From IMG/VR virus record IMGVR_UViG_3300029133_000263: a stretch of 64,000 bases of DNA; one strand, given 5' to 3'. The position numbers and the translations under genes were made by a program. This DNA is from a virus. Below, piece after piece: positions 8,825 through 60,771 of the stretch (within the stretch, counting starts at the first letter, position 1; every line of letters begins with the position of its first letter). The notes below the pieces were generated by a model. It worked only from the letters and a program-made list of their open reading frames with translations, ran no database searches and had not been told where the DNA came from.

Positions 8825-8829
8825 AGCCT

Positions 8830-11490
8830 ATGTTTCGATTCAAAAATGGCGGAGAAATCCCCCACGGTGTTGTGGAACAGAGTATCGGTACAATCCCGCT
8901 GACGAAAAAGGAACGCGATGAAATCGCCAAAGAAGAGCGGCGGCGGATGAATCAAAAGCTGGAAGCTCAGAATGAGCGCTATCAAATCATTCGAAGCACA
9001 CAGCGTATCATCCCTATTGAGGATATTTACGGCGGCATTGTTGTGACAAAGGACCACCGATATATCAAAATCATGGAATTTCGCCCTATCAACTTTGCCT
9101 ATATGGACGCGGAAACTCAAAACCGTATTATTTCGCTTTTCTATCAAACGTTCAAAGCAACTCCCTGCAATATCCAGTTCAAAACCTTTTCTCGTAAAGC
9201 TGATGTCGAGAATTCAATCGCGACCGTGACGGACTATTACAAAGCAGAAAAGAATCCGAGTCGTAAGCGAATGTTGCAGGCATACATCGGATTGCTTCGT
9301 AAGACGGCTTTGTCCGTTGGTATTACCCGTCGCTTCTTTGTGGTCGTAGAATTCCAGCGCACTATCAGCAACGATGGTTCTAAATTTGAAATGGTTGTGG
9401 CCGACTTGAATGCCGTTGCGGCAAACGTCCGCTCTCACATGGAACAGTGTGGTAATATCTTTATTCCTGCACTTGGTAACCCTGACGGAAACGAGGACGC
9501 AGGTCTACACCAGCTTTTTTACCAGCTCTTGAACCGTAGAAAAAGCGAGACCATCACGTTCAAGCAGCACATGGACCCCATTGTTGACCGTTATTTTGAA
9601 GCCGAAAAGAATGGCGTTAAGACGTCTTTGCAGGCAACGGAACTGATTGCTCCGGACTGGATTGACTTTACGCATCACGATTACATTGTCATTGATGGCA
9701 AGTTTTATACTTTCGCTTACATTCCCTCGAACGGGTTCAGCCAGCGTGTCTACGCGGGCTGGGTGGCTACGTTCGTAAATGCTGGTGAAGGCATTGACGT
9801 CGATATGTTCTTTGAGCACATGTCCCGTGAAGCTGTCTTCAATAAAATCAGTACACAGCTTCGTCTGAGCCGTGCAAACGCCATGGACAGTCACGATACT
9901 GACTCTGACTATCAGGCGCGTATGGAAAAAATTTCGTCCAGTGAATATATGCTGCGCGGCCTTTCCAGCGGCGAAGAGTTCTATTACCTGTCAATGCTCA
10001 TCACTATCGTGGCAGATACAAAGAAGGAACTCGATTATAAGTTCGATGCTTTGAAAAAGCGTATCGAAGGTCAGAGCATGAAGATTCGCCGTGCGGATTT
10101 CATGATGGAAGAATGCTTCGATTCCTGCCTGCTTCCTCTTGCGAAAATCAATAAGGAGCTGGCAAAGAAATCTCATCGTAATCTTTTGACTTCGGGTGTT
10201 GCATCCTGCTATCCGTTCATCTCGTTTGAAATGCAGGACCCGGGCGGCGTTATGGTCGGTACAAACCATGTCAACAACTCTCTGGTCACCATCGATATGT
10301 TTGATACCCGCGCTCATGCAAACGCAAACGCCGTTATCCTGGGCTCCTCCGGTTACGGCAAGACTTTCACCGCACAGCTGTTCGCACTACGCTTGTCTGA
10401 AATGGACACGCAGGTGTTTATCATCTCTCCTCTGAAAGGTTTGGAGGACTACGGCGGCGGTTGTAAGGCAGTCAATGGTCAGTTCGTCTCCATGGACCCC
10501 TCTTCGGACAACAACATCAACATCATGGACATTCGCGCTCCTGACGATGAGGACGCAAAACTGCTGGATGATTATGAGGCTTCCGGCTCCTTCTTGACCA
10601 AAAAGATTCATACGATTCTTTCGTTCCTGCACCTGGTTGTTCGCAATATGACGCAGGAAGAAGAGCAGCTGATTGACGGCTGCCTGTATGCGACATACGC
10701 AAAGTTCGGCATCACCCGTGATAACAACTCTATCTACGATAAAGATGGCAACTATAAGGTGATGCCGCTGCTGGAAGATTTGCAGGAAGAAATGAGAAAA
10801 AACCCTGAACTGCATACCGTCTGCAACATCTTGAATCCGCTAATTAACGGTTCTATGGCTTGCTTCAATCACCACACCAACGTGGACCTTGACTCCAAGT
10901 ACATCGTATTTGACTTCAATGGTATGAAAGGCTCTTTGCTTACCATGTCTATGTTCGTGGTTCTGGACTTTGTCTGGACGAAAATCAAAGAGGACCGTAC
11001 ACAGCGCAAAGCCGTATTTATTGACGAATGCTGGAAATTGATTGGCACTGACTCCAACGAGCAGGCAGCTGAAGACGTTGTTGAAATCTTCCGTACGATT
11101 CGTGCTTATGGCGGTTCCGCTTTTGCTATGACTCAGGATATTTCTCAGTTCTACGAATACAAGGGCGGCAAATACGGCAAGGCAATTATTGGTAACGCCG
11201 ATACCAAAATCATCATGCACCTGATTCCGTCCGAAGCAAAAGCCCTTCAGGAAGCCATTCAGCTGACCAGCGTTGAGATGGAAGCGGTATCCAGCCTGCC
11301 GCGTGGTCAAGGTCTGGTTTGCTCTGCATCCGCAAAACTGTTCGTCGATTTTGTAGCCGATGACTATGAAGCCAAGGAAATCACAACCGATGCTAAGTCC
11401 TTCTACGAACGCCGCAAGGCTCTGGAAAAGAAAAAGCGGGAAGAAGAAGAGAAGGCGGCGGAAAATACCGTCATTGATGTTGAAATGTGA
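8830..11490 (+). CDS. VirB4/TrbE/CagE-family conjugal transfer ATPase
   Basis: GAGGAG RBS; Walker A AVILGSSGYGKTF; ~887 aa; Walker B-like VFIDECW; context. Confidence 0.85.
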   Translation: MFRFKNGGEIPHGVVEQSIGTIPLTKKERDEIAKEERRRMNQKLEAQNERYQIIRSTQRIIPIEDIYGGIVVTKDHRYIKIMEFRPINFAYMDAETQNRIISLFYQTFKATPCNIQFKTFSRKADVENSIATVTDYYKAEKNPSRKRMLQAYIGLLRKTALSVGITRRFFVVVEFQRTISNDGSKFEMVVADLNAVAANVRSHMEQCGNIFIPALGNPDGNEDAGLHQLFYQLLNRRKSETITFKQHMDPIVDRYFEAEKNGVKTSLQATELIAPDWIDFTHHDYIVIDGKFYTFAYIPSNGFSQRVYAGWVATFVNAGEGIDVDMFFEHMSREAVFNKISTQLRLSRANAMDSHDTDSDYQARMEKISSSEYMLRGLSSGEEFYYLSMLITIVADTKKELDYKFDALKKRIEGQSMKIRRADFMMEECFDSCLLPLAKINKELAKKSHRNLLTSGVASCYPFISFEMQDPGGVMVGTNHVNNSLVTIDMFDTRAHANANAVILGSSGYGKTFTAQLFALRLSEMDTQVFIISPLKGLEDYGGGCKAVNGQFVSMDPSSDNNINIMDIRAPDDEDAKLLDDYEASGSFLTKKIHTILSFLHLVVRNMTQEEEQLIDGCLYATYAKFGITRDNNSIYDKDGNYKVMPLLEDLQEEMRKNPELHTVCNILNPLINGSMACFNHHTNVDLDSKYIVFDFNGMKGSLLTMSMFVVLDFVWTKIKEDRTQRKAVFIDECWKLIGTDSNEQAAEDVVEIFRTIRAYGGSAFAMTQDISQFYEYKGGKYGKAIIGNADTKIIMHLIPSEAKALQEAIQLTSVEMEAVSSLPRGQGLVCSASAKLFVDFVADDYEAKEITTDAKSFYERRKALEKKKREEEEKAAENTVIDVEM

Positions 11491-21935: not shown

Positions 21936-23237
21936 ATGGCGAGCGAACGAGCGATACTTCACTGTGACATGAACTCTTTTTACGCAAGCTGCGAGGCGGC
22001 TTATAACCCAAAGCTGCAGGGTAAGCCGATTGCAGTATGTGGTGACCCGGAAAGGCGAAACGGCATTGTGTTGACTGCCTCGTATCCGGCCAAACGGATG
22101 GGCGTGAAAACCGGGATGGCACTCTGGGAAGCGCAGCAGCATTGCCGTGACATCATCTTTGTTCCGGCTCATTATGACCTATATACCAGGTACAGTGGGT
22201 ATACCAGAGAGATATTCCTCAGATACTCTGACATGGTCGAACCGTTTGGCTTGGATGAAGCATGGCTCGATTGTACCGCAAGCCGGTCTCTCTTTGGAAG
22301 CGGGGAAGAGATAGCCAAGAAAGTATCTGATACCGTGAAGAATGAACTGGGCATTACCTGTTCCATCGGAGTGAGCTGGAATAAAGTCTTTGCCAAGTTG
22401 GGGTCTGATTACAAGAAGCCAGATGCCACCACCGTTATATCAAGGTCAAACTGGAAAGATATTGTGTTCCCGCTGCCTGCCACGGACCTTCTGTATGTTG
22501 GGTCCAGAACGGGGAAAAAGTTATCAAGCTACTGTATCCATACAATCGGTGATTTGGCGACCGCCAATCCAAACTTTCTGAAAGAAAAATTCGGGAAAAT
22601 CGGCCCGATGCTTTGGGGATTCGCCAATGGCCTTGACACGGGAGCAGTGGCGAAATACGAGGGAAGGGAAGCTCAGGTACCTATCAAGAGCATCGGAAAC
22701 AGCTGGACAACGCCACGGGACTTGAAGACTAACCGGGATGTCTGGATTGTTATTTATCTGCTCGCGGAAAGTGTCGCTGCGCGGCTCAGAGAGAACCATT
22801 TCCGATGCCGAGGCGTAGAGGTGAGTCTCCGGGATTCCAGCCTTTTCTCTTTTGAGAGACAGTGCAAGCTCGGCCAGCCAACGATGCAGGAAAAGGATAT
22901 TGCGGAGGCAGCTTACCAGCTGTATAAGAAGAACTACCGGTGGAGTGAGCACCTACGCTCAGTTGGCGTGCGTGCCATTGACCTGCGGCCAGATACGGAA
23001 CCAAACCAGATATCTTTTGAGTACAGCGCCGAAAAGCAGGAAGAGACCGAGCGGCTTGAATCCGCGATTGACGGGATACGGAACCGGTTCGGATACTATT
23101 CCGTACAACGAGCCGTCATGTACAAAGACCGGTTTCTCTCTCATTGTGACGCCAAGGGAGACCACACCATACACCCACACGGGTATTTGCAGGGAAGCAC
23201 AGGGGAGCATCTAATCTATGTCAGAACCAAGAATTAA
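21936..23237 (+). CDS. Y-family (DinB/UmuC-like) translesion DNA polymerase
   Basis: N-terminal HCDMNSFYASCE signature; 433 aa. Confidence 0.9.
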   Translation: MASERAILHCDMNSFYASCEAAYNPKLQGKPIAVCGDPERRNGIVLTASYPAKRMGVKTGMALWEAQQHCRDIIFVPAHYDLYTRYSGYTREIFLRYSDMVEPFGLDEAWLDCTASRSLFGSGEEIAKKVSDTVKNELGITCSIGVSWNKVFAKLGSDYKKPDATTVISRSNWKDIVFPLPATDLLYVGSRTGKKLSSYCIHTIGDLATANPNFLKEKFGKIGPMLWGFANGLDTGAVAKYEGREAQVPIKSIGNSWTTPRDLKTNRDVWIVIYLLAESVAARLRENHFRCRGVEVSLRDSSLFSFERQCKLGQPTMQEKDIAEAAYQLYKKNYRWSEHLRSVGVRAIDLRPDTEPNQISFEYSAEKQEETERLESAIDGIRNRFGYYSVQRAVMYKDRFLSHCDAKGDHTIHPHGYLQGSTGEHLIYVRTKN

Positions 23238-23971: not shown

Positions 23972-24502
23972 GTGAATAGCAAATACCGAGAGCAAACCTG
24001 CTGCTTTGTTGGGCACAAGGATATCCCACCGGGCGAGCAGCTCAAAATATTGGCCAGGGTGGAACACCGGCTTATTCCACTTATCCAGCAGGGAGTCACT
24101 TACTTTGGTATCGGCGGTTCTTTAGGTTTTGATACTCTTATGGCGGATATGCTGGTTTCGTTGAAAGCAGCACATCCCCGAATTCGCGTTATTGAGGTTT
24201 TGCCTTTTGAGGGATACCGTTCTAAATGGAGCTTAGAACAGCAGCGGCATGCCGAGAAAATAGACAAGCAGGTAGACAAAATAGTATATGCTGCGAAAGA
24301 ACCAGGCAGGGGAGTATACCTTCTAAGAGACCGACATCTAGTCGATTACTCTGCTTATTGTATCTCCTATTGCACAAGGACTACCGGCGGCACGGCATAT
24401 ACGGTGAAATACGCTCTGGAACACGGCATAACGGTGTACAACGCCTCCAGTTTCGATGTGAGCGCCTTGCTTCAGGCCCGACCGCTTGCGAAGAACGGAT
24501 GA
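23972..24502 (+). CDS. DUF1273/YpsA-like SLOG-family protein
   Basis: N-terminal CFVGHKDIP motif and overall SLOG-like pattern; GTG start with AAAGGAGA RBS. Confidence 0.55.
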   Translation: MNSKYREQTCCFVGHKDIPPGEQLKILARVEHRLIPLIQQGVTYFGIGGSLGFDTLMADMLVSLKAAHPRIRVIEVLPFEGYRSKWSLEQQRHAEKIDKQVDKIVYAAKEPGRGVYLLRDRHLVDYSAYCISYCTRTTGGTAYTVKYALEHGITVYNASSFDVSALLQARPLAKNG

Positions 24503-30810: not shown

Positions 30811-31198
30811 TAAAGACAGAGCGATTGTGAGATGGGGCGATACCGATGCAGTAGGAATGAGAATCTTAGCAGCTAAAAGAGTCAACAACCCCGCCTAAAC
30901 CGGTTCGCCGGTTATAGACGGGGCTTGCGGGGCAACCTGTAAGCCCAGTTGATTAGCCTAAGCCCATTGCTCCGGCAGTGGGGAAAACTACGTTGTGTAC
31001 TAATAATATAGGCACCTTATCCATGCTCCACAAGTGGTGAGCTCTGCAGGCGTTTCGTTAAACATCTCCGAGGGGAGGAGAAGTGCGAGCGTCATGTCGA
31101 AAGGCTAAAACAGTGCATAACATTGGCGAAGTGGACCACAGGACGCAAGTCCTGACTTATAGTTTTATTACTATTTTACGAATGGAGAAACAAAAATT

Positions 31199-35562: not shown

Positions 35563-35681
35563 CTCAAAAGCGCGGTTTTGTCCGCGCAGCTGCTCCAAAA
35601 GACAGCCTCCACGCGGCGAGCAGCGGGCAACGGGAGACAGTCCCGGCAAATTGTCTTTGAGACGGAAGGAAGAAGTGCCCT

Positions 35682-37476: not shown

Positions 37477-38076
37477 ATGAGCTATGAACCCATTATCACA
37501 CCGGGCAGGAATTTCTTTCTTGTCTCGACGGAGTACAAAGAGAGCAGCTCTGCCTGGTGCCGCAAGCAAATTAGAGCGACACTGAGGACCTGTCAGGGAC
37601 GAGTCATCATCATTGATGCAACGGGCGAGTACGCGGACTTGGCGCTTGAACATGACAGATTGATTCGAGAGAAAATCCCGTCCATCATTTATCGGTATAA
37701 GCTGGTGGACGGGAAACCGTATATTGCTCATGTCATTGAAGTTGATACGGAAGCAAATGAAGCACCGCACCTGATTGTATACGATATCAGCCGGACCATA
37801 ATCACCAGCTGGAAGGTCGGCGTGGAGGCAATTGATAAAATCCTACAATCCTATGCCGTGATGCAGGACAGTGAAATCGCGTGGCTGTATGTTCCGCTGG
37901 ACTTATATACCAATGTCAAGCCCGAAAGCGAATCCTGGAACATTTTGGAACGAACTATCAAGGGTAATGAAGGCAAGCTCATGACAGTACTGACGACTCG
38001 CAAATTCACCATTGGGATGGTCCAGCGCTGTTTGCATATGGCAAAAATCAAAAATAATTTGGAGGATAACAAATGA
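37477..38076 (+). CDS. hypothetical protein
   Basis: ORF; overlaps the next gene. Confidence 0.45.
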   Translation: MSYEPIITPGRNFFLVSTEYKESSSAWCRKQIRATLRTCQGRVIIIDATGEYADLALEHDRLIREKIPSIIYRYKLVDGKPYIAHVIEVDTEANEAPHLIVYDISRTIITSWKVGVEAIDKILQSYAVMQDSEIAWLYVPLDLYTNVKPESESWNILERTIKGNEGKLMTVLTTRKFTIGMVQRCLHMAKIKNNLEDNK

Positions 38077-38960
38077 CCAATGAACAGCTGAGAATCGCAT
38101 TGACGGCGAATGCCGTTACCAAACAAACCCGAAACCATTTTGGATTCAGTGACCCGTGTGGAAAAACGCTGGAAGAATACAACAAGTCCGCGATGCTGTG
38201 CTGCATGACAGCGGCGCAGAGAATGAACACGCCGGGTTTTGAGCGTGTTTTGGCTGCGCAGATTTTTCCCTGCTTTACCATTGGCTGCTGGAATCAGACG
38301 AAGACGGTCTATGATTTTGACTACGAGTTTCAGAAAATGCTGATGGATACGGATGACGTGGCAATTCATCAGGATATCCTGCAGCGACTCCCGGTTCGTG
38401 ATTTCTTTATCCCGGTGTATGACAGCTACGACTACAACGGTATGTTCGTGCATGTGGAATTCGACGAAAAAGAGAAAACCACAGCTTTCGGTATCGTTCT
38501 TGTCGGCCCCACTAAGGGCAGCCACGATGATTTCACGTTCCTGACTCTGCCTGCCTGGGCCAAGGAAAATCAGAGTTTGACGGAAGCAACTCGGAGCACG
38601 AAAGAATACCTGGAAAAGGCAGCAGGGCAGCGGCAAGTAAATGGTATCAGCGTACCGGCTGTGATGGAAGCAGTCCCTTCGGTCTTTGACGGCGGCACAC
38701 CTTATGTCCGGCTGGCAATCCTGTGCGCCAACTATCTTGCCAGCAAGAACCCTGATGTCTGCTTGGAAACTTCCAAAAAGCGTGACCGCCCGGTATTCGT
38801 GTTTCAGGGAAAGGCACAGCGAATCAACGTCAAGACATATACCGTTGGTGAGAATGCGGCCAAAGAATACAAAAAGAATGGGGAAGGCAAAACTCCCCGC
38901 TGGCGGCATTACTGGTGCGGCAATGGCCGGGAACGCCGGGAATGCAAGTTTATTTACTGA
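38073..38960 (+). CDS. hypothetical protein
   Basis: ORF. Confidence 0.45.
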   Translation: MTNEQLRIALTANAVTKQTRNHFGFSDPCGKTLEEYNKSAMLCCMTAAQRMNTPGFERVLAAQIFPCFTIGCWNQTKTVYDFDYEFQKMLMDTDDVAIHQDILQRLPVRDFFIPVYDSYDYNGMFVHVEFDEKEKTTAFGIVLVGPTKGSHDDFTFLTLPAWAKENQSLTEATRSTKEYLEKAAGQRQVNGISVPAVMEAVPSVFDGGTPYVRLAILCANYLASKNPDVCLETSKKRDRPVFVFQGKAQRINVKTYTVGENAAKEYKKNGEGKTPRWRHYWCGNGRERRECKFIY

Positions 38961-40489: not shown

Positions 40490-40546
40490 GCAGCATTTTC
40501 CCGCGTGAGTGATAGCGCTCATGCGGGAATTTTTTGTAATTTTCTA

Positions 40547-40574
40547 TTGCTAATCTGTGCGAATTGCGTACAAT
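40547..40574 (+). promoter_or_regulatory. family promoter (TTGCTA-N16-TACAAT, spacer ATCTGTGCGAATTGCG)
   Basis: read directly. Confidence 0.6.
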
Positions 40575-40644
40575 AGCAAATATAAAGTAGAAGTATATCG
40601 AATCGCTGCCCCGCATGAATTGCTTGTGCGGGGCTTTTTGTTTG
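40575..40644 (+). ncRNA. ~60-nt leader ending in an intrinsic terminator (GCCCCGCA..TGCGGGGC + T-run)
   Basis: promoter-proximal hairpin + U-tract directly before the 40659 gene. Confidence 0.4.
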
Positions 40645-40658
40645 CGGAAAGGAAATGC

Positions 40659-40859
40659 ATGATGTACGGTTTATCAGAAGAGAGCTTAACGATTGTTGGT
40701 GTTATTTTGATTGTGGTTGGTGTCGCTATGATTGGTTGGGGATTTGAATGGAATCAGGACATTACCAATGATAAACGGGTCGGAACCGTTGTCAGAGACA
40801 TTGGCGTTATGGTTTTGGCAACCGGCATCATATTTGTGATGCAGCGGGCAATGAACTAA
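40659..40859 (+). CDS. small two-TM membrane protein
   Basis: 66 aa, hydrophobic. Confidence 0.4.
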   Translation: MMYGLSEESLTIVGVILIVVGVAMIGWGFEWNQDITNDKRVGTVVRDIGVMVLATGIIFVMQRAMN

Positions 40860-40873
40860 ATTGGGAAAATGTA

Positions 40874-40907
40874 AGGCAGGCTCATTTCGGGCCTGCTTGT
40901 TTTTTTA
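40874..40907 (+). terminator. intrinsic terminator
   Basis: GGCAGGC..GCCTGC stem followed by T8. Confidence 0.6.
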
Positions 40908-40915
40908 GGTGAAAT

Positions 40916-43111
40916 ATGACAATGACAAAGAAGATTGACTCCCGGCCCTACCAACAGGAAGCTGCTGCAGCGATTCACAGGGAGTGGGATGCCGGGAATA
41001 AGAAAACGCTGGTTGTGATGCCGACCGGAACCGGCAAAACTATTGTGTTTGCAAGCATCGTGAACGACCAGGTGGCAAAGGGCGAACACGTTTTGATTCT
41101 TGCGCACCGGGAAGAGCTTTTACAGCAGGCAAGCGACAAGCTCAAGATGGTGACGGGGCTAGAGACCGCGTTAGAGAAAGCACAAAGCTCGGCGCTCGAT
41201 TCCGATAAGATGGTCGTGGTTGCCAGTGTACAGACTCTCTCTAAGCAGAATCGGTTAATGAAGTATCCGCGTGATTATTTCGGGACTATCATCATTGATG
41301 AAGCGCATCACACGGCAACCAAAACTTACAAGGGAATTCTCGAGCATTTCATCGATGCCAAAGTGTTGGGCGTGACCGCAACACCCGACCGAAGCGACAT
41401 GAAATCCCTATCTGATATCTTTGATAGTCTTGCATTTGAATATAAGCTTCCGGATGCAATTCGGGAAGGTTATCTCTGCAAAATCAACACGAAGACGATT
41501 CCTGTCAAGGTGGATATCAGCAAAGTCCATATCAACGCCGGTGATTTCAGTGCTCAGGACCTCGGCAATGTTCTTGACCTGTATCTGGACACGATTGCGG
41601 ATGCCATTGTACGAGAATGCCAGAACCGAAAGACCGTTATCTTTACGCCTCTGGTACGAATCAGCAAAAGACTGTGCAATATCCTCAATAAGCGGAACTT
41701 CAAGACTGCAGAAGTCAATGGCGCGTCTGCGGACCGCGAGGACGTTCTGAAAGGATTCGACAACGGCGAGTACAAGGCGCTCACGAACGCGATGCTTCTG
41801 ACGGAAGGCTGGGATTGCCCGACCGTTGACTGCATCATTTGCCTGCGTCCTACCAGGAGCCGCAGCCTGTATGCGCAGATTGTGGGACGCGGAACACGTC
41901 TGTGTGAAGGGAAAAAGAATCTTCTCGTGCTGGATTTCCTGTGGCTGACAAAGAAACATAGTCTTTGCCATCCTGCTGATATTTTCTGTGAAGACCAAGA
42001 AGTGGCACAAAAGACCACCGATATGCTGGCGGATGCGGCACTCACCGGTTCGAATAGCCAGGAGAATTTCGGGAGTCCTGAATTGGGGCTGATTGAGGCA
42101 ATCGAGGAAGCACAGACTGAGCTGGACGAGGAAAAGCGGAAAGCACTGTGTGAACTCGAAAAGCAGGATACGATTCAGCGTAAACTCCAGGCACAGCGTC
42201 AAAAGCCGAGAGGGCTCGTTGACCCTCTGCAGTATATCTTCAGCATCGAAGCGCCGGAACTCAACGACTATCAGCCGATGTTTGAGAGTGAGAGGCAGGA
42301 GCCTTCCGATGACATCATCGATAGTATTTCGTGCTACGGCGTAAAAGGGGATGCCATCAAATCTCAGGGCCTTGCCGCTGCAATTCTCAAACGACTCATT
42401 GCTCGCAGAGCCAGCGGAATGGCTACCCCGAAACAGATTCGGTGTCTTGAAAGTTTTGGGTTCGTCCATGTTGGGCGCTGGACAATGCAGTATGCAAGCA
42501 GTTTCCTGAACGTCATCAGTTCTCATGACTGGGAGCTTCCAAATGGGTTCGACGCATCTACGCTGGACCCGGAAAAGAATACGGCGGACGACCTCGCCAA
42601 GCTGTATCCAGACTACAAGGAGGATGAGACGAAGAAAGCACCGCGTGGGGATGCTTTCATCTGCTGCTACTACGATGCAGGGTATAATTTAGCACGCAAG
42701 AAGGTCTGCAGCAGCGAGAAAGAAATGCTTAATATGTATTATTCGCTGTTCAACAATTGTGAAGCAAAGTACTTCTATTATATGAAGGAAGCTGATGCCT
42801 GGATGGCAGAAAAGCAGAATCTAATTGCCAGAAAGACCGGAACACCGATTTCTGCCGCACAGCCGACTCAGGCAACACCCGCAGTACCTCCTCCCTTTGT
42901 CCCGACAGCTCCCGCCAAGAGCCACGAATATTACTGCTGCCTTGCCCGATGGGATGGGTCCTACATTGGCTATGAAACTTACAAGAGTGAGCAGGCAGCA
43001 CAGAATGCCCGAAAGCAGATTGCCCGGCGCGGTGAGACGGCTGTGTATGCCACAGTAGAGGAAGCTGAAGCGTGGGTTGACAAGCAGAAGGCCGCAAGAA
43101 CTAGGAGGTAA
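40916..43111 (+). CDS. SF2 DEAH/ResIII-type helicase with ~350-aa C-terminal extension
   Basis: motif I VVMPTGTGKT, motif II IIIDEAHH, motif III GVTATPDR, motif VI QIVGRGTR. Confidence 0.8.
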   Translation: MTMTKKIDSRPYQQEAAAAIHREWDAGNKKTLVVMPTGTGKTIVFASIVNDQVAKGEHVLILAHREELLQQASDKLKMVTGLETALEKAQSSALDSDKMVVVASVQTLSKQNRLMKYPRDYFGTIIIDEAHHTATKTYKGILEHFIDAKVLGVTATPDRSDMKSLSDIFDSLAFEYKLPDAIREGYLCKINTKTIPVKVDISKVHINAGDFSAQDLGNVLDLYLDTIADAIVRECQNRKTVIFTPLVRISKRLCNILNKRNFKTAEVNGASADREDVLKGFDNGEYKALTNAMLLTEGWDCPTVDCIICLRPTRSRSLYAQIVGRGTRLCEGKKNLLVLDFLWLTKKHSLCHPADIFCEDQEVAQKTTDMLADAALTGSNSQENFGSPELGLIEAIEEAQTELDEEKRKALCELEKQDTIQRKLQAQRQKPRGLVDPLQYIFSIEAPELNDYQPMFESERQEPSDDIIDSISCYGVKGDAIKSQGLAAAILKRLIARRASGMATPKQIRCLESFGFVHVGRWTMQYASSFLNVISSHDWELPNGFDASTLDPEKNTADDLAKLYPDYKEDETKKAPRGDAFICCYYDAGYNLARKKVCSSEKEMLNMYYSLFNNCEAKYFYYMKEADAWMAEKQNLIARKTGTPISAAQPTQATPAVPPPFVPTAPAKSHEYYCCLARWDGSYIGYETYKSEQAAQNARKQIARRGETAVYATVEEAEAWVDKQKAARTRR

Positions 43112-43115
43112 TCAT

Positions 43116-43670
43116 ATGCGTACAGACAAGACGGCAAGCCACATTTGCTACGAGCTTGACCACGATGTGCAGGAATATGCGAAACGGCTTTTAGCCAAAA
43201 AAATTCTGCACGCGGCACAGCAGGACAATGCCGTTCCGTTCCCTGATGAAACGGCAAAGAGAATTGCCGAGACGGCGGTGTTTCTGACCGAACGCCTCAC
43301 GCTTTTGTATGAGGTCAGTTCTGGCTTTCGAGGCATTCGGTTCAGCGATTCCGGGAAACAACCCGCTGTTTATACTACCATGGTTCAGCGCAATGCTCCT
43401 TTGTACGATGAGCCGATGCTTGGGCGGGCCTACAACCTCGCCAGCTTCCTTGCCGCTGAAAATGCGGATATCAGAGAAGTGGTTTTGATGAAGCATGGGG
43501 TTTTGGCGGCAATTTATAATGCTGCTGCGCACATGAAAGAGCGGACTCCGGAGCCGGGGAAAATCACGGTTCAGAGCCAGCTGTTTGTGTCCACGGCGGT
43601 TGAGCTGTTCGATGGCCTTTCGGATGCGGCGACAGAAAAGAAGAACGACAGCGATAAAAGCGCTGCCTGA
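43116..43670 (+). CDS. hypothetical protein
   Basis: AGGAGG RBS. Confidence 0.5.
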   Translation: MRTDKTASHICYELDHDVQEYAKRLLAKKILHAAQQDNAVPFPDETAKRIAETAVFLTERLTLLYEVSSGFRGIRFSDSGKQPAVYTTMVQRNAPLYDEPMLGRAYNLASFLAAENADIREVVLMKHGVLAAIYNAAAHMKERTPEPGKITVQSQLFVSTAVELFDGLSDAATEKKNDSDKSAA

Positions 43671-43692
43671 GCTATAAATTAGGAGAATTTGT

Positions 43693-44145
43693 ATGATTCG
43701 ATTCAGAAAAGATACCCCTCGCTACTGGTTTATGAGTAACTATTATCCTTGCGAATTCGTGATGGATGGGATTCGTTACAAGAATGCCGAAGCAGCGTTT
43801 CAGAGCCACAAGGTTCCGCTGGAAGAGCGCAAACAATTTTCAGACATGCCTCCGGCAACGGCTAAGCATTTTGGCCGTCATGTGGCTTTTCCTGCCAACT
43901 GGGACGAAACCCGGGACGATGTAATGCGCCGCGTGGTGATGGCCAAATTCGAGCAGAATGAGGACCTCAAACAGCGCCTCCTCGAAACGGGTACGCAGCC
44001 TATTGAGGAAGACACGACCAGCTGGCATGACAACTATTGGGGCAACTGCCACTGCCCGAAATGCCGGAACATCCCGGGCCAGAATCGGCTCGGTATCATT
44101 CTGATGGAAACCAGGGACAAGCTGAAAAAGCAAGCGGCCAAATAA
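43693..44145 (+). CDS. NADAR / YbiA-like (DUF1768) domain protein
   Basis: FMSNYYPCEFVMDGIRYKNAEAAFQSHK closely follows the YbiA/NADAR N-terminal signature. Confidence 0.65.
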   Translation: MIRFRKDTPRYWFMSNYYPCEFVMDGIRYKNAEAAFQSHKVPLEERKQFSDMPPATAKHFGRHVAFPANWDETRDDVMRRVVMAKFEQNEDLKQRLLETGTQPIEEDTTSWHDNYWGNCHCPKCRNIPGQNRLGIILMETRDKLKKQAAK

Positions 44146-44260
44146 TGCTTGCAATGGCTTGCGGGTTCCATGTAATTAAAGGTGTAATCAAAAAGAATTA
44201 TCTTTTGCGAGGACTCCGTTGCTGACGGCGTTCTCGTTCTCTTTTTTTACAAAGACAAAA

Positions 44261-44298
44261 GGCTGCCGCCCATCATGGGCAGCAGCCTTCTTTTTTTG
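44261..44298. terminator. bidirectional intrinsic terminator
   Basis: GGCTGCCGCCCATCATGGGCAGCAGCC followed by a T-run. Confidence 0.6.
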
Positions 44299-44348: not shown

Positions 44349-46235
44349 TCACTGAACAACCTCGCCAAGGTCGTTTGCATATTTCGGGTCACACATCATG
44401 AAGTAGTTGACGGGGCCGTACTCCAGACCGAGCTCCTGCGCGTATGCCTTGATGGCTTCCAGGACGTCCTCTTTCTTGAGGCCAAACTTGGAATGCAGAC
44501 GGGCAAACTCTTTGTCAGAGACAGAAACGCAAGAGCAATTTTCTGCATCGGTTTCTTTGCTGCCCAGCATCCCGTCAAAGATGTCCTGTCCTGCACAGAG
44601 AATCGTCTCATTGTTCATCACATAGGCGATAACGGAAGCCTTACAGTCAAAGTCGCTGTCTTCCACAAGGAAATCCTCAGGGCGGCCGTGACGTTCAACA
44701 ACGTTTTCATAGATGTCCCGGAGTTCGATAGGAGCAGAAGGAGCGGTCAGCGCTGCTTTATGAAGGCGCATGAATTCCACGAACTTTTCATCCGAGAGGG
44801 TATCGGTATAAAAGCCGATGCCGGAAACGCGAACCTTCACTTCGCTGGCAAAGTAATCGTCAATTTTGGAGACGATTTTCTGCTGGACCCGCTTGTATGC
44901 TTCCTGAACATTGGAAGCCGTGTAAAATACCGGAAACTTCATGATGTCGATTTCCTCCGGCAGACTCGCGTCATAGGCCGCATCAATGCCGCCTCGCAGC
45001 GCCGGAACCGCGTCATGCAGCTCTTTCACAGAAGAAATGTATCCGGTAATGTACAGCTCATCGTTTTTGCTGTAATGCCCGATAAGTCCCACATAGAGGG
45101 TCTGCATCAGCATCCGCTTGAAGCTGAACCAGCAAAGTCGAATAGGAAGAATGACGTTTGCGGCCGAACCTTCCGCGTGATAGTTGCTGGGTGCAGAGAC
45201 CTTTTCCAGCAGAATCTGGCCGTTCTTGTCACCGTATTTTTCCTTGAAAAGAGCTTGAAGAATTTCAGTGGACGAAAGAGGAGTGGACATTGGAATCGTT
45301 TCATTCAGAAAAGAGAGGAATGCATCCACGTTGTCTTTCTGCCATGCGTCATCAGACATGCTTGCACGCTGCATAGAGAGCTTGTCTTTCCCGTCGTCAG
45401 GCAAGGGCTCATACCCACAGGCGATACGAAGCTCGTTCTCCGTGACAGCATCCGTTGCGCTTGCAATTTTCTTGAGGGTGTTTTCGGTCGGCTGAGCTTT
45501 TGCGTTGCCATTCACGAGGCTGCTGATATACCCACGAGTCAGTCCTGCCTGAAACGCAAACTTACCCTGTGTTCGGGTTCCGATGGCTTTTTTGACCAGC
45601 GATGCCAGCCTTTGAAAGTCGGGCTCTTTGGGAAAGGTGGCCTCCGTATCCTTATTGCTGTTCTTTTCAAGTACCGACTTGTCCCAACCGGTGACAAGAG
45701 AATACCCAATATCCTTCAAGGATTGGTAGGCAACCCCGTTCTGGTCAAGAGCCGGGGAGAATGTACCGCTGTTATCTTCCAGCTGCTCTACTGCCTCACG
45801 CACCATCCTTGCTTCGTTCATCAGGATGACGTCCGGGGCTTCAAGCCGGGCAAGACTCTTGTACCGACTATTGAGGCGCTCGACTCGTGCGGCCAATGCA
45901 GTGATGTTGGCAACTTGGCCCTTCGTTGCATGGGCAGAGATATCTGCACCAAGTTCAAAATGGTTCAGTGCAGGAATATCCACGCTTTTGCTCTTGGCGA
46001 ATTCCACAATGGCTTCCGCGCCATAGAAACGCTTCTCATGGGCTGCGACAACTTTCGTTATCGTGTCGGCCGAGTTGTCCAGCTCAAGCACTTCACCTTT
46101 TCCGGCATCCTCGACATAACACCTGGCGTTGGTGAGAAAGCCTTTCAAAAAATCAGCATCCACATCCAGCTTCTTAGCGATGCCGGGCAGCTGCTTATAG
46201 AAAATCACGGGTGTGGCGAGGTTAACAGAAATCAT
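44349..46235 (-). CDS. large (628 aa) protein with central XRE-family HTH domain; candidate element regulator
   Basis: HTH_3-like segment GKFAFQAGLTRGYISSLVNGNAKAQPTENTLKKIA; divergent from tandem family promoters. Confidence 0.6.
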   Translation of the reverse strand: MISVNLATPVIFYKQLPGIAKKLDVDADFLKGFLTNARCYVEDAGKGEVLELDNSADTITKVVAAHEKRFYGAEAIVEFAKSKSVDIPALNHFELGADISAHATKGQVANITALAARVERLNSRYKSLARLEAPDVILMNEARMVREAVEQLEDNSGTFSPALDQNGVAYQSLKDIGYSLVTGWDKSVLEKNSNKDTEATFPKEPDFQRLASLVKKAIGTRTQGKFAFQAGLTRGYISSLVNGNAKAQPTENTLKKIASATDAVTENELRIACGYEPLPDDGKDKLSMQRASMSDDAWQKDNVDAFLSFLNETIPMSTPLSSTEILQALFKEKYGDKNGQILLEKVSAPSNYHAEGSAANVILPIRLCWFSFKRMLMQTLYVGLIGHYSKNDELYITGYISSVKELHDAVPALRGGIDAAYDASLPEEIDIMKFPVFYTASNVQEAYKRVQQKIVSKIDDYFASEVKVRVSGIGFYTDTLSDEKFVEFMRLHKAALTAPSAPIELRDIYENVVERHGRPEDFLVEDSDFDCKASVIAYVMNNETILCAGQDIFDGMLGSKETDAENCSCVSVSDKEFARLHSKFGLKKEDVLEAIKAYAQELGLEYGPVNYFMMCDPKYANDLGEVVQ

Positions 46236-46500: not shown

Positions 46501-46560
46501 TGTAAATATAGGATGAATCAGTGTGAGCTGCAGAGATTAGGAATTCTGCGGCTCTTTCTT
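46501..46560 (+). ncRNA. ~58-nt transcript ending in a terminator (GAGCTGCAGAG..TCTGCGGCTC + T-run); tandem copy 1
   Basis: starts AAATATAGGA; no ORF. Confidence 0.4.
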
Positions 46561-46688
46561 ATGTGGCCCCTAAAAGTCGTGATAAATGCACGCGTGCGTT
46601 CTAAAAATGTGTGCGTGCGTTTTTTGTGTATTTTCACGCATTTATCGCTCGTTATTTGTGTGGGGTAGTGTTTTGCCATAATTTTGCC

Positions 46689-46716
46689 TTGTGCATCCGT
46701 GCGAATTAAATATGAT
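46689..46716 (+). promoter_or_regulatory. family promoter (TTGTGC-N16-TATGAT, spacer ATCCGTGCGAATTAAA)
   Basis: read directly. Confidence 0.55.
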
Positions 46717-46779
46717 AAGAAATATAAGATAAATAAGTGTGAGCCGTAGAGATTGAGTTTCTGCGGCTCCTTTCTTTTG
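46717..46779 (+). ncRNA. ~60-nt transcript ending in a terminator; tandem copy 2, followed by a second hairpin terminator at 46784-46821
   Basis: GAGCCGTAGAG..CTGCGGCTC + T-run. Confidence 0.4.
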
Positions 46780-46825
46780 TGGTCCCCATGCGGATGAAAA
46801 TGTCTGCGTGGGGTTTTTTTTAATT

Positions 46826-49892: not shown

Positions 49893-50396
49893 ATGAAAAT
49901 CACAGAAACGAAAATCAAGGTATCTGACCTTGTCGAGAACTACAAGGACAATGGTGATGGCGGAGTCTTTGGCTACAACGACCGCCTTACGATTCGCCCG
50001 TCTTTCCAGCGCGAGTTCATTTATGGAGAAAAACAGCGTGCAGCCGTCATCGATTCCGTAATGAACGGATTCCCTCTGAACGTCATGTACTGGTCTAAGA
50101 CCGGGACTGACACATACGAGGTTCTTGATGGGCAGCAGCGTACCGTCTCTATTGCTCAGTACATCAACAAGGATTTTCCTATCAAAATCAATGGCAACGA
50201 TAAGTTCTTCCAAAACTTGACCAACGAGGAAAAGCAGACAATTCTGGACTATGAACTGACGGTTTATGTCTGCGAAGGTACTGAGGCAGAGAAGCTGGAA
50301 TGGTTTAAGCGCATCAACATCGCTGGTGAAGTTCTGACTCCGCAGGAACTGCTGAATGCTACTTATACAGGACCGTGGCGTGGCCGGTTCGCCTGA
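49893..50396 (+). CDS. DUF262 (ParB/Srx-fold, GmrSD-N-like) domain protein, apparently truncated
   Basis: RPSFQREF and VLDGQQRTVS motifs. Confidence 0.55.
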   Translation: MKITETKIKVSDLVENYKDNGDGGVFGYNDRLTIRPSFQREFIYGEKQRAAVIDSVMNGFPLNVMYWSKTGTDTYEVLDGQQRTVSIAQYINKDFPIKINGNDKFFQNLTNEEKQTILDYELTVYVCEGTEAEKLEWFKRINIAGEVLTPQELLNATYTGPWRGRFA

Positions 50397-56920: not shown

Positions 56921-57061
56921 CGCTTGCTATATTATTCGATTTCGGTAAAATATAAAATGTAAACAGATACTAAGAACCAGTAGGATTCACAATCTGTATG
57001 TTTAGCGGACTTATCCCATCGTGGGGTAGGTCCGCTTTTTTTGTTGAAAGGAGAAGAATTC

Positions 57062-58222
57062 ATGAAAATCAAAAACAAGCTTTTACGGAGTACAGCGGCA
57101 ATCATCGCTGCACTCTTTGCACTCAGCTTCACCGGCTGCGGTCAGAGTCCGATAACCTCGGAAAGTCCATCCAGCACCGGGGTCGTCTCAGAAAGCACTG
57201 CAAGCAGTGAACAGACGGCTGGCGGTTCGGTGGACGGCAGCTTTACTATTCACTTTTTAGACGTAGGACAGGCGGATTCAGCTCTTATCACCTGCGACGG
57301 CCACTCAATGCTGATTGATGGCGGCAATGTAGATGATTCTAACCTCTTATATTCTGTCATGCAGCGTGAAACCGATGGGCACCTGGATTATGTCGTTGGG
57401 ACTCACGCGCACGAAGACCACATCGGCGGCTTGTCTGGTGCTTTTGAAGCCGTTACTGCGGACATGACTCTATGCCCTGTGACAGAATACGACAGCAAAG
57501 CATTTCGGAACTTTGCAAGCTACGCGGAACAAAAAGGCGGAGGCATCACGATACCGGATGTGGGTGAAACCTACACTCTGGGGGAAGCGAAATTCACGAT
57601 AGTTGGTGTTAATTCTGTTCCCGATGATACGAACAATGCATCAATTGTTCTGCGCATCGTTTATGGGAATACTTCGTTCCTCTTTACTGGTGATGCTGAA
57701 CAGGAAGCCGAAAATGTGATACTTGCATCGGGACAAGACATTCAGTCAACGGTTCTGAAAGTAGGTCATCACGGTTCAAGCACATCTACCTCAGAGGCTT
57801 TTCTGGACGCAGTGAATCCGACCTATGCTGTGATTTCCTGTGGAGCAGGGAACAGCTATGGCCATCCGCATCAGGAAACACTCGACAAGCTGCAAAACAA
57901 AGGTGTTGAGGTTTATCGTACAGACCTGCTGGGCGATATCTATTGTACATCGGATGGCAAAGAGGTAAGTTTCACTACCGGAGAATATCATGATGAGAAT
58001 CGGATTGAAGCCGGTTCTGCTGCAGAGTCCAATGATGAACAAAACAGCAGACCTCTTGTAATAGACAAAACATACGTTCTGAACACAAGTACCATGAAGT
58101 TTCACAGGCCCGATTGTTCTGCAGTCGAATCGATGAGCCAGAAGAATAGAATCGACTATATGGGTTCACGTGACGAGCTCATCCAGGAAGGGTATTCGGC
58201 GTGCGGGATTTGCAAACCATAA
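57062..58222 (+). CDS. MBL-fold metallo-hydrolase lipoprotein (ComEC C-terminal-domain-like) with C-terminal Cys4/His metal-binding tail
   Basis: lipobox FTGC; GTHAHEDHIGG (HxHxDH); C-terminal FHRPDC...CGICKP. Confidence 0.65.
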   Translation: MKIKNKLLRSTAAIIAALFALSFTGCGQSPITSESPSSTGVVSESTASSEQTAGGSVDGSFTIHFLDVGQADSALITCDGHSMLIDGGNVDDSNLLYSVMQRETDGHLDYVVGTHAHEDHIGGLSGAFEAVTADMTLCPVTEYDSKAFRNFASYAEQKGGGITIPDVGETYTLGEAKFTIVGVNSVPDDTNNASIVLRIVYGNTSFLFTGDAEQEAENVILASGQDIQSTVLKVGHHGSSTSTSEAFLDAVNPTYAVISCGAGNSYGHPHQETLDKLQNKGVEVYRTDLLGDIYCTSDGKEVSFTTGEYHDENRIEAGSAAESNDEQNSRPLVIDKTYVLNTSTMKFHRPDCSAVESMSQKNRIDYMGSRDELIQEGYSACGICKP

Positions 58223-59872: not shown

Positions 59873-60029
59873 GTTGTACATTAACGGCGAAGTTGTGCAA
59901 AACGCTATTGGCTGGCGCTTGACCGCAGTTCCCGAACTGGGTTGGGCTATTTTGCTGAGTGATGGCACGCAGAGCTTTATCCCGAAAACAGAAATCAAAT
60001 TCATGTACGTTGAAAAGGGAGATGAATAA
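59865..60029 (+). CDS. small protein (54 aa), candidate precursor-like peptide immediately upstream of the radical SAM gene
   Basis: GGAGGAG RBS 7 nt upstream; coupled to its neighbours. Confidence 0.4.
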   Translation: MSKLYINGEVVQNAIGWRLTAVPELGWAILLSDGTQSFIPKTEIKFMYVEKGDE

Positions 60030-60030
60030 C

Positions 60031-60771
60031 ATGCGCATTTGTAGTGTAAGCAATGTGGTCATAGAAATCACGCGCCGGTGCAATATGTGTTGTGCGCACT
60101 GCCTGCGCGGAGATGCCGAAAATGTCGATATTCAGGAAAGATACATAGATGCTTTTCTTGACAGCTTTGAGAAAGGCGCTTGTATCAGCTATATCGTTTT
60201 CAGCGGTGGAGAGATTTCTCTGAATATCCCGGCAATTCGGTATATTCTGAAAGCCGTTAAAGAGCGAAACATCTCGGTTGGCAGCTTCTATATGGTCACC
60301 AATGGCAAGGCTGTCGATAAGATGGCGGACCTTGCTTTGGCGAGTCTTGAATGGTGGAACTACTGTTGCGACAAAGACGACGACATGTGCGGTCTTTGTA
60401 TCAGCAGCGACAACTTCCACGAGAAAATCCCGCATGAAAGCGAAGGCTTCTTTAGTGGCTTGAAATACAGCCACGACGATAAGGTGACGGACTTTCGCTT
60501 TCATCCCCTTATCAACGAAGGCCGCGCCGAAACCATCAATTCGAGTCTCTACAGAAAATGCGAACCATGCGTGGAGAAGCTCGAATACGAAATCAATGGA
60601 GATGACGGTATCGATTTCTGGTGCAGCGAGATGTACCTGAACGCTGTTGGTGATGTTGTCTCCGGCTGTAACTGGTCTTATGAGTCTCAGAAAAAGTACC
60701 GTATCGGGAACGTGATGGACAAAAACTGGCTGGATAATATCTCCGACAGCGAATGGTGCATTGCGAACTAA
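60031..60771 (+). CDS. radical SAM enzyme with Cys-rich SPASM/twitch-like C-terminal domain
   Basis: CNMCCAHC (Cx3Cx2C) near the N-terminus; about nine further Cys in C-terminal clusters (CCDKDDDMCGLC, CEPC, WCSE, GC, WC). Confidence 0.7.
   Translation: MRICSVSNVVIEITRRCNMCCAHCLRGDAENVDIQERYIDAFLDSFEKGACISYIVFSGGEISLNIPAIRYILKAVKERNISVGSFYMVTNGKAVDKMADLALASLEWWNYCCDKDDDMCGLCISSDNFHEKIPHESEGFFSGLKYSHDDKVTDFRFHPLINEGRAETINSSLYRKCEPCVEKLEYEINGDDGIDFWCSEMYLNAVGDVVSGCNWSYESQKKYRIGNVMDKNWLDNISDSEWCIAN

Follow-up and report, generated by a model that had tools for sequence, protein, structure and literature searches.

NADAR proteins reverse the ADP-ribosylation of guanine (and cytidine) but not of thymidine, the mark made by DarT2 (PMC11543638, PMC11125620, PMC11825919), cytidine-ADP-ribose having been added to their substrates by a 2026 paper. 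Every NADAR subtype tested, including YbiA of Escherichia coli, cleaves guanine-ADP-ribose in vitro (Cihlova et al., PMC11125620). The orphan NADARs AdfN-Bas32, AdfN-Bas60 and T4 gp30.3 counter DarTG1 and not DarTG2 (Johannesman et al., PMC11825919), and experiments on AdfN-Bas32 demonstrated both neutralisation of DarT1 and recovery of phage growth on hosts with DarTG1 (PMC11825919). A YbiA of myxobacterial origin serves as antitoxin to a different ADP-ribosyltransferase (PMC11125620), and DS-32 is a validated defence pair composed of a phosphoribosyltransferase (PRTase), DS-32A, and a NADAR, DS-32B (bioRxiv 10.1101/2025.01.08.631726). NADAR 'erasers' against DarT-type enzymes have so far (2025) been shown for phages alone. 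The literature that we searched held no paper tying NADARs to conjugative elements or plasmid leading regions, and the supplementary tables of a leading-region paper (PMC11541004) contain no NADAR, PF08719, YbiA or DarG entry. Here we describe a NADAR gene in a 64,000-nucleotide stretch of DNA (the window), IMG/VR record IMGVR_UViG_3300029133_000263, which is part of a conjugative-type element of the human gut although pipelines called it viral. We estimate a probability of roughly 50% that the element uses this protein to erase base-linked ADP-ribose from DNA and so to counter DarT1-type enzymes in recipient cells.

The gene, its main sequence features and its two upstream neighbours are as follows, in window coordinates:

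43693-44145, plus strand: NADAR gene, 150 amino acids (aa) plus stop, encoding a 'naked' YbiA-type core (open reading frame (ORF), Pfam, AlphaFold2 model and dN/dS, the ratio of nonsynonymous to synonymous substitution rates)
43681-43686, plus strand: Shine-Dalgarno sequence AGGAGA, 6 nt ahead of the NADAR ATG (read from the sequence)
43789-43812, plus strand: codons for E33 to K40 (EAAFQSHK), equivalent to the catalytic or ADP-ribose-contacting E43/K50 of the Phytophthora nicotianae NADAR (PnNADAR) and E36/K43 of T4 AdfN (alignment)
44008-44040, plus strand: codons for E106 to W116 (E-DTTSWH-D-NY-W), with the predicted catalytic Glu (Pn E125), D113 (Pn D130) and W116 (Pn W133)
44026-44064, plus strand: subclade-specific insertion H112 ... 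C119-x-C121-x-x-C124, a putative zinc knuckle (alignment)
43116-43670, plus strand: 184-aa ORFan 22 nt upstream of the NADAR gene, hereafter the partner (synteny)
40916-43111, plus strand: 731-aa superfamily 2 (SF2) helicase with ResIII and Helicase_C domains (Pfam, synteny)

The ORF lies exactly where the preliminary description had placed it, with an ATG start, 150 codons and AGGAGA upstream, and the N-terminal YbiA/NADAR signature reported there is complete: S15, N16, Y18, P19, F22, D25, G26, Y29, E33, F36, Q37 and K40 are all present. The protein covers positions 2-163 of the 163 in Pfam PF08719 (DUF1768) at 94.3 bits (E 1.3e-26; gathering cut-off 35.1 bits), scores 82.6 bits on NCBIfam TIGR02464 (cut-off 73.7) and matches phrog_1017 (E 1.7e-36). 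Sequence searches of the PDB returned YbiA (2B3W, E 5e-14) and PnNADAR (8BAU, E 4e-11). The family match is far above chance. An AlphaFold2 model built from 27 homologues had a mean predicted local distance difference test (pLDDT) score of 96.4 and, in Foldseek, template modelling (TM) scores of 0.84 to 2B3W and 0.78 to 8BAU, these being the only significant matches in the PDB; dozens of viral NADARs also match the model by structure. Compared with homologues of 92-93% identity, dN/dS was ~0.05 at a dS of ~0.6. The gene is under strong purifying selection, indicating that the enzyme has been kept functional.

The residues that hold ADP-ribose in PnNADAR are E43, K50, R79, W89, R93, E125, D130 and W133 (Schuller et al., PMC11543638). 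Mapped through a HMMER alignment to 8BAU, in which chain index and published numbering differ by a constant offset of 2, their equivalents here are E33, K40, R62, W70, R74, E106, D113 and W116, so that by alignment all eight ADP-ribose-binding or catalytic residues are kept. E33, K40, W70, E106, D113 and W116 are invariant, and R62 nearly so, in a 27-sequence alignment reaching down to 34% identity. Roles for E43/K50 and E36/K43 have been described (PMC11543638, PMC11825919). The catalytic position is occupied by Glu in the YbiA subfamily, Asp in DarT1-linked antitoxins and His in T4-like phage proteins (PMC11543638); as E106 aligns with Pn E125 and the YbiA Glu, the protein is assigned by this definition to the YbiA subfamily. 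The core begins at residue 2, and the model has no N-terminal or other fold extension. The riboflavin (rib) genes that form part of the YbiA-subfamily context were absent from the ~50 window ORFs that we scanned, the set to which all of the ORF scans below refer.

The protein and its closer relatives carry the insertion W-H-D-N-Y-W-G-x-C-x-C-x-x-C, which is absent from YbiA and from the SPbeta-L3, Bas32 and Enterococcus NADARs. Among 47 non-redundant sequences tabulated, a sample biased by the use of WHDNYWGN as one of the search patterns, the insertion His is accompanied by three Cys in 41 of 41 cases (CxCxxC-type spacing in 40, another spacing in 1), and three Cys occur in none of the 6 homologues without the His. 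This pattern suggests that the insertion is probably a zinc knuckle. The subclade was seen on dozens of viral and metagenome-assembled-genome contigs.

Relatives of the protein are found mainly on phages. The closest annotated one, at 46% identity, is the NADAR of phage SPbeta-L3, encoded 3.4 kb from the anti-Gabija gene gad1, and those of AR9/PBS1, gut phage Phass-1 and the Aeromonas LAh phages are ~44% identical. Records bearing homologues comprised 428 phages versus 48 plasmids, 9 of the latter conjugative. Species-representative genomes held no homologue above 45% identity, and the exact protein recurs on numerous contigs from human-gut metagenomes, the longest of 237 kb; the window NADAR is confined to one family of mobile elements. 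The gene of a NADAR homologue carried by T5-like phages is 97% identical at the DNA level to bas32_0066 of phage IrisVonRoten, which is Bas32 (PMC8594841). The product of bas32_0066, the sole Bas32 gene matched by the NADAR query, is 32% identical to the window protein over 143 residues (pairwise E 2e-20) and is presumably the published AdfN-Bas32. An adjacent T5-like phage ORF that is also named 'swarming motility protein' does not align with NADARs. NADARs of the AdfN-Bas32 type bear the GenBank names 'swarming motility protein', 'GTP cyclohydrolase II' and 'riboflavin biosynthesis protein' (contig L037, 2474-2923, and many T5-like phages), which look inherited from YbiA and rib-fusion annotations.

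How does this locus compare with the described systems? AdfN-Bas32 resembles the window NADAR in being a stand-alone protein of ~150 aa encoded on a mobile element without a cognate toxin, with the same E/K pair and the YbiA-type Glu; it differs in being phage-borne, in lacking the WHD...CxCxxC insertion and in having no upstream 184-aa partner or helicase. AdfN-T4 (gp30.3), also an orphan anti-DarTG1 NADAR, shares the E/K pair (its E36/K43 correspond to E33/K40), but it is very divergent (the window NADAR scores 20 bits, below the cut-off, on Pfam Phage_30_3), has His in place of the catalytic Glu and requires T-even infection for full activity (PMC11825919). The features of the AdfN-type orphans, namely carriage on a mobile element, the lack of a cognate ADP-ribosyltransferase and an intact E/K pair, are all present in the window NADAR. 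E. coli YbiA is the best structural match, with 30% identity in the structural alignment, a bare core and the catalytic Glu, and yet it is encoded by a chromosomal SOS-operon gene, also acts as a glycosidase on riboflavin intermediates, does not rescue cells from DarT1 and lacks the Cys insertion.

DarG1 proteins of the BC4488 type belong to the same superfamily as the window NADAR, presumably share the guanine-ADP-ribose chemistry and are likewise encoded second in a tight pair. What sets them apart is the DarT1 gene that precedes theirs, their basic N-terminal extension and their catalytic Asp (D171 in E. coli C7). We rejected assignment of the window NADAR to DarG1, as it has no adjacent DarT1 gene (DUF4433/PF14487), no basic extension and no catalytic Asp, the motif at the catalytic strand being I104-E105-E106 and not D-x-E. 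DS-32 is similarly a two-gene unit of a NADAR and an unrelated partner, but its partner is a PRTase, whereas the window partner has no PRTase match and the two genes at our locus have been lost independently in related contigs. Membership in DS-32 was also rejected, the window NADAR scoring 59 bits on NF053876 (cut-off 240) and having no PRTase partner.

A further comparison is offered by a Bacillota conjugative element, the Enterococcus faecium conjugative plasmid pEfm12493 (NZ_KP342511; contig L034, 6950-9814), which encodes a NADAR domain of 38% identity in an anti-restriction setting. Unlike the window NADAR, it is one domain of a 954-aa polyvalent fusion protein (WP_194235706), without the Cys insertion:

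aa 22-157: NADAR
aa 521-635: ArdC_N
aa 706-796: zincin/M78 peptidase

The fusion gene directly follows a MobP2 relaxase gene and precedes toprim and topoisomerase IA genes. NADAR goes unmentioned in the 2017 paper on polyvalent proteins.

The preliminary description had put the gene on a mobile, conjugative element, and conjugation genes in the window, listed here together with a ribozyme, bear this out:

3487-5652: VirD4-type coupling protein
8821-11487: VirB4/TraG-P-loop ATPase
35589-35658, plus strand: hepatitis delta virus (HDV)-like ribozyme of the Faecalibacterium prausnitzii type (Rfam 60 bits, gathering score 44)

The coupling protein is ~30% identical to coupling proteins of Clostridium plasmids, and the window also encodes an M23 peptidase. 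The sole contig found to share window gene 2084-3487 carries, upstream of it, genes for a type IV secretion system pilin (weak Pfam match), a 1772-aa protein and a RecD2-like helicase. Thirty-odd related NADAR-carrying contigs of 37-188 kb are catalogued as viral in IMG/VR (among L045-L076 and L105-L144). At least four of them share an identical VirB4-like gene, and contigs with a 78%-identical VirB4 reach 389 kb. The VirB4 and NADAR genes are ~35 kb apart in the window and ~21, 38 and 44 kb apart in three related contigs. No capsid, portal or terminase family matched the scanned ORFs, and for this reason the label 'conjugative-type element' was kept; phage and plasmid collections held no similar DNA, and a tRNA scan of the window found none. 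Lying between a VWA gene and the ORF that follows, the ribozyme gives a hint of the host genus. Likely hosts of the element are gut Clostridia.

DarT enzymes modify single-stranded DNA, and conjugative DNA enters cells in single-stranded form, which makes an eraser a good fit to this type of element. We propose that the element encodes an active stand-alone NADAR N-glycosidase for use as such an eraser. A DNA ADP-ribosyltransferase of the recipient or host, of which DarT1 of DarTG1 is the known example, would mark the DNA of the element; the NADAR would cut ADP-ribose from its guanine (possibly also cytidine) bases, and removal of the adducts would let the transferred strand be copied and established. 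The biochemical half of this proposal, an N-glycosidase acting on ADP-ribose-base adducts, stands on much firmer ground than the biological half.

Several lines of evidence support an eraser role. The NADAR is full length with all of the ADP-ribose contacts, and every subtype tested hydrolyses guanine-ADP-ribose, which we take as the probable substrate on DNA. None of the scanned ORFs matched DarT (PF14487) or any other ADP-ribosyltransferase family, which makes the gene an orphan. The relatives of the protein reside mostly on phages and other mobile elements, and one of them, at 32% identity, is presumably AdfN-Bas32. In addition, the gene closes a block that includes an AcrVA2-like protein, and the NADAR-ArdC fusion of pEfm12493 lies beside a relaxase gene. 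The AcrVA2-like protein, of 295 aa (38073-38960, plus strand), has a precomputed match to PF26125 in all related contigs.

Other observations weigh against such a role. The AcrVA2-like match was not reproduced with a local copy of Pfam. The window NADAR shares its catalytic Glu with YbiA and, unlike DarT1-linked antitoxins, has no basic N-terminal extension, and carriage of DarT1 by the likely Clostridia hosts is presumed. In uninfected E. coli, DarT1 toxicity is not relieved by YbiA or gp30.3, although both are active in vitro (PMC11125620), meaning that in vivo specificity cannot be read from sequence. Searches of the window, and of 8 kb of sequence recovered to the left of it, turned up neither a relaxase nor oriT, so early entry or expression of the gene is only presumed. 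Guilt by association also cuts both ways, as defence-like genes (GmrSD_N, a GajB-like UvrD helicase and RlaP) are among the neighbours. Taken with the intact orphan gene, the conjugative-type element and the activity of AdfN-Bas32 against DarT1, these points leave the anti-DarTG counter-defence role advanced in the preliminary description plausible for DarTG1-type systems only. Its broader statement that NADARs can reverse DarT toxicity applies to the guanine mark of DarT1 (PMC11825919) and not to the thymidine mark of DarT2.

We considered four rival explanations, presented here by falling likelihood. The first, which we regard as unlikely, is that the NADAR degrades or sequesters small ADP-ribose derivatives of NAD-based defences (signals of the cyclic ADP-ribose type or ADP-ribose-derived toxins) rather than repairing DNA. 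Phage NADAR, Macro, SLOG and Nudix proteins tend to co-occur and have been argued from genomic context to hit diffusible ADP-ribose derivatives (Iyer et al. 2022, PMC9503650), and the window does encode a YpsA-type SLOG protein, although its gene lies 20 kb from the NADAR gene. One phage NADAR is said, where PMC11825919 cites it (Carabias 2024, reference 37 there), to work without its enzymatic activity. All biochemical tests of NADARs so far have nevertheless found hydrolysis of base-linked ADP-ribose on nucleic acids, and the close association of the gene with that of an SF2 helicase favours a nucleic-acid substrate.

A second explanation, which we consider quite improbable, is that partner and NADAR form a two-gene toxin-antitoxin or defence module with a swapped partner, used for addiction or against phages. 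In such a module the NADAR would act as type IV antitoxin to a toxin of a new kind. The gene order and tight spacing are those of DarT1-NADAR pairs, DS-32 shows that NADARs can pair with partners other than DarT, and the window NADAR matches the PADLOC candidate PDC-M42C. The two genes also stay adjacent down to 43% partner identity. The partner had only 18 hits among 1.84 billion representative proteins, nearly all from the same element family, and the sole distant homologue (43% identity, contig L026) lies directly upstream of a NADAR gene, with a 20-nt overlap. That NADAR is 65% identical to the window protein, and the L026 element has no helicase. Distant members of the Cys-insertion clade were found on phage-like contigs without the partner.

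The pattern of gene loss in related contigs argues against a toxin-antitoxin pair. Partner and NADAR are both full length and adjacent in 47 of 54 contigs, and the NADAR is full length in 48. The NADAR of L040-L043 breaks off after residue 85-88, with loss of E106, D113 and W116 and hence of its catalytic C-terminal half, next to an intact partner ORF; L135 has an intact partner and no NADAR, and L063 has an intact NADAR with the partner in three fragments. The cuts arise at a TnpB-remnant junction or by rearrangement (three junction contexts across L040-L043), identifying the 3' half of the NADAR gene as a recombination breakpoint. The following truncated genes keep their first 85-88 codons, joined either to what remains of a TnpB (Cas12f-like) C terminus or to unrelated sequence:

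L040, 5001-5525
L041, 2979-3503
L042, 4063-4500

These independent losses indicate that neither gene strictly needs the other. The partner is thus unlikely to be a toxin that requires the NADAR, its role as an obligate toxin being disfavoured by the contigs in which it stands intact beside a truncated or absent NADAR, and the NADAR is unlikely to depend strictly on the partner. Occasional truncation of the NADAR fits a conditionally useful accessory gene, as the eraser would be.

Nor does the partner bear an ADP-ribosyltransferase or PRTase signature. It had no match in Pfam, NCBIfam, PADLOC or the PDB. We rejected DarT, YarT, any other ADP-ribosyltransferase and PRTase as its identity, as 19 family members gave no Pfam match up to E 10 and a profile gave none in the PDB. 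Homology to AdfA (T4 gp61.2), an inhibitor that binds DarT, was likewise rejected (hhalign probability 0.25%). Its AlphaFold2 model is all-helical and, at a pLDDT of 45, unreliable. The partner gene has a dN/dS of 0.14-0.25.

Similarly improbable is a third explanation, that the NADAR would serve in general repair of DNA adducts to the benefit of the host cell or of replication of the element, directed at the ADP-ribosyltransferase toxins of competitors or at endogenous ADP-ribosylation rather than at an anti-element defence in particular. The linkage of helicase and NADAR resembles the LexA-controlled dinG-ybiB-ybiA SOS operon of E. coli (PMC11125620), the element carries a Y-family polymerase (21936-23234), and protection from ADP-ribosyltransferases of competitors was raised in the discussion of PMC11825919. 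A repair gene of this kind is harder to reconcile with confinement to one mobile-element family, with absence above 45% identity from species-representative genomes and with a location bordering a recombination hot spot rich in conflict genes. Finally, a housekeeping N-glycosidase of the YbiA type that removes reactive riboflavin-pathway intermediates is very improbable: the protein passes the cut-off of TIGR02464, 'riboflavin biosynthesis intermediates N-glycosidase', and has the Glu and bare core of YbiA, but rib genes are missing from the scanned ORFs, the gene sits on a mobile element with its nearest relatives on phages, and YbiA itself cleaves guanine-ADP-ribose too, such that a riboflavin-only role is unlikely from context.

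Returning to the eraser of ADP-ribose on element DNA, the two upstream genes may help to target the enzyme. The helicase stop codon lies 4 nt before the start of the partner gene, suggesting that helicase, partner and NADAR are probably co-transcribed. It is possible, if doubtful, that the three constitute an undescribed counter-defence module of large gut conjugative elements, in which the lineage-restricted partner would direct the zinc-knuckle NADAR or boost its activity, or would block the transferase on its own, and the module would strip ADP-ribose from the incoming single strand. If so, it would be the first system of anti-DarT type from a conjugative element and would provide evidence that DNA ADP-ribosylation restricts conjugation, adding it to restriction and CRISPR as a barrier to the spread of plasmids and integrative and conjugative elements in the gut; orphan NADARs would then mark anti-defence regions of conjugative elements. 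What is new at this locus is an element type for which a role of orphan NADARs has not been described, a conserved ORFan partner and the CxCxxC insertion. The CxCxxC subclade and the partner also offer handles on the poorly understood in vivo specificity of NADARs.

The wider setting of the gene combines conserved and variable parts. The NADAR gene is the final one of a conserved plus-strand block that runs from a Mor-like regulator through proteins of 212, 199, 295 (AcrVA2-like), 235, 202 and 65 aa to the SF2 helicase, the partner and the NADAR. Two features lie beyond it:

44257-44291, either strand: 16-bp GC-rich hairpin, likely a bidirectional terminator (T-runs on both strands, that of the minus strand from a scan and that of the plus strand from the sequence), separating the NADAR gene from the next, convergent gene
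44349-46235, minus strand: convergent 628-aa protein with a helix-turn-helix (HTH_3) domain at aa 222-269

What directly follows the NADAR gene differs between contigs and includes the convergent 628-aa HTH protein or just its last 140 codons, type I-C cas genes, GIY-YIG and EcoRI-like methylase genes, N6 methylases, and a metallo-beta-lactamase with a faint Apyc1 match. On the basis of this variable content, we place the NADAR gene at the border of a recombination hot spot in which defence-like and anti-defence-like genes are mingled.

Within the helicase, no Pfam family could be assigned to the C-terminal half, and PADLOC matched the protein only to the helicase motors of type I and type IV restriction enzymes and of PbeA. 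Wherever the helicase is deleted, its last 70-100 residues (...YYCCLARWDGSYIGYETYKSEQAAQNARKQIARRGETAVYATVEEAEAWV...) survive as a small ORF before the partner (L135, 4742-5050; L063, 5108-5392; the corresponding part of the window is 42900-43111, plus strand). A motif similar to this tail occurs once more within the helicase, and no family could be assigned to it. An RNase-H1-type hybrid-binding domain was not supported as an identity for the C-terminal repeat, a sequence search of the PDB having returned only chance matches to nanobodies. Three terminator-like hairpins lie upstream of the helicase gene, at 40498-40898. Clusters of long GC-rich hairpins with T-runs occupy this position, before the helicase unit, and 46525-46813 (plus strand), before the GIY-YIG gene; the hairpins at 46525-46554 and 46741-46769 resemble each other by eye.

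Downstream, residues 103-176 of the 628-aa protein weakly match residues ~244-311 of the RNA polymerase beta' subunit, and it is in many related contigs that just the last 140 codons of its gene are kept. Type I-C cas genes (Cas5d, Csd1/Cas8c and Cas7) directly follow the NADAR gene in L019 (9569-12480), L021 (10140-11551) and L023 (13383-14978), and are themselves followed by a UvrD-like helicase gene and then an IS200/605 Y1 transposase gene. The GmrSD_N ORF at 49893-50396 (plus strand), of 167 aa, is what is left of a GmrSD_N-HNH gene whose intact 378-aa form is present in L001, L002 and L007; the remnant overlaps the start of an RlaP-type nucleotidyltransferase gene.

Elsewhere in the window, a HEARO RNA (IscB omega-RNA) was detected at 30881-31141 (plus strand; Rfam 91 bits, above the gathering score). 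No IscB ORF adjoins it in the window, and related contigs carry genes for 456-465-aa RRXRR+HNH (IscB-like) proteins in this region. A metallo-beta-lactamase fused to an Ada-type zinc domain is encoded at 57041-58222 (plus strand), and its relatives have a faint Apyc1 match. Further cargo of conflict type comprises the YpsA-type SLOG protein (23972-24502, plus strand) and a small radical-SAM protein (59959-60771, plus strand).

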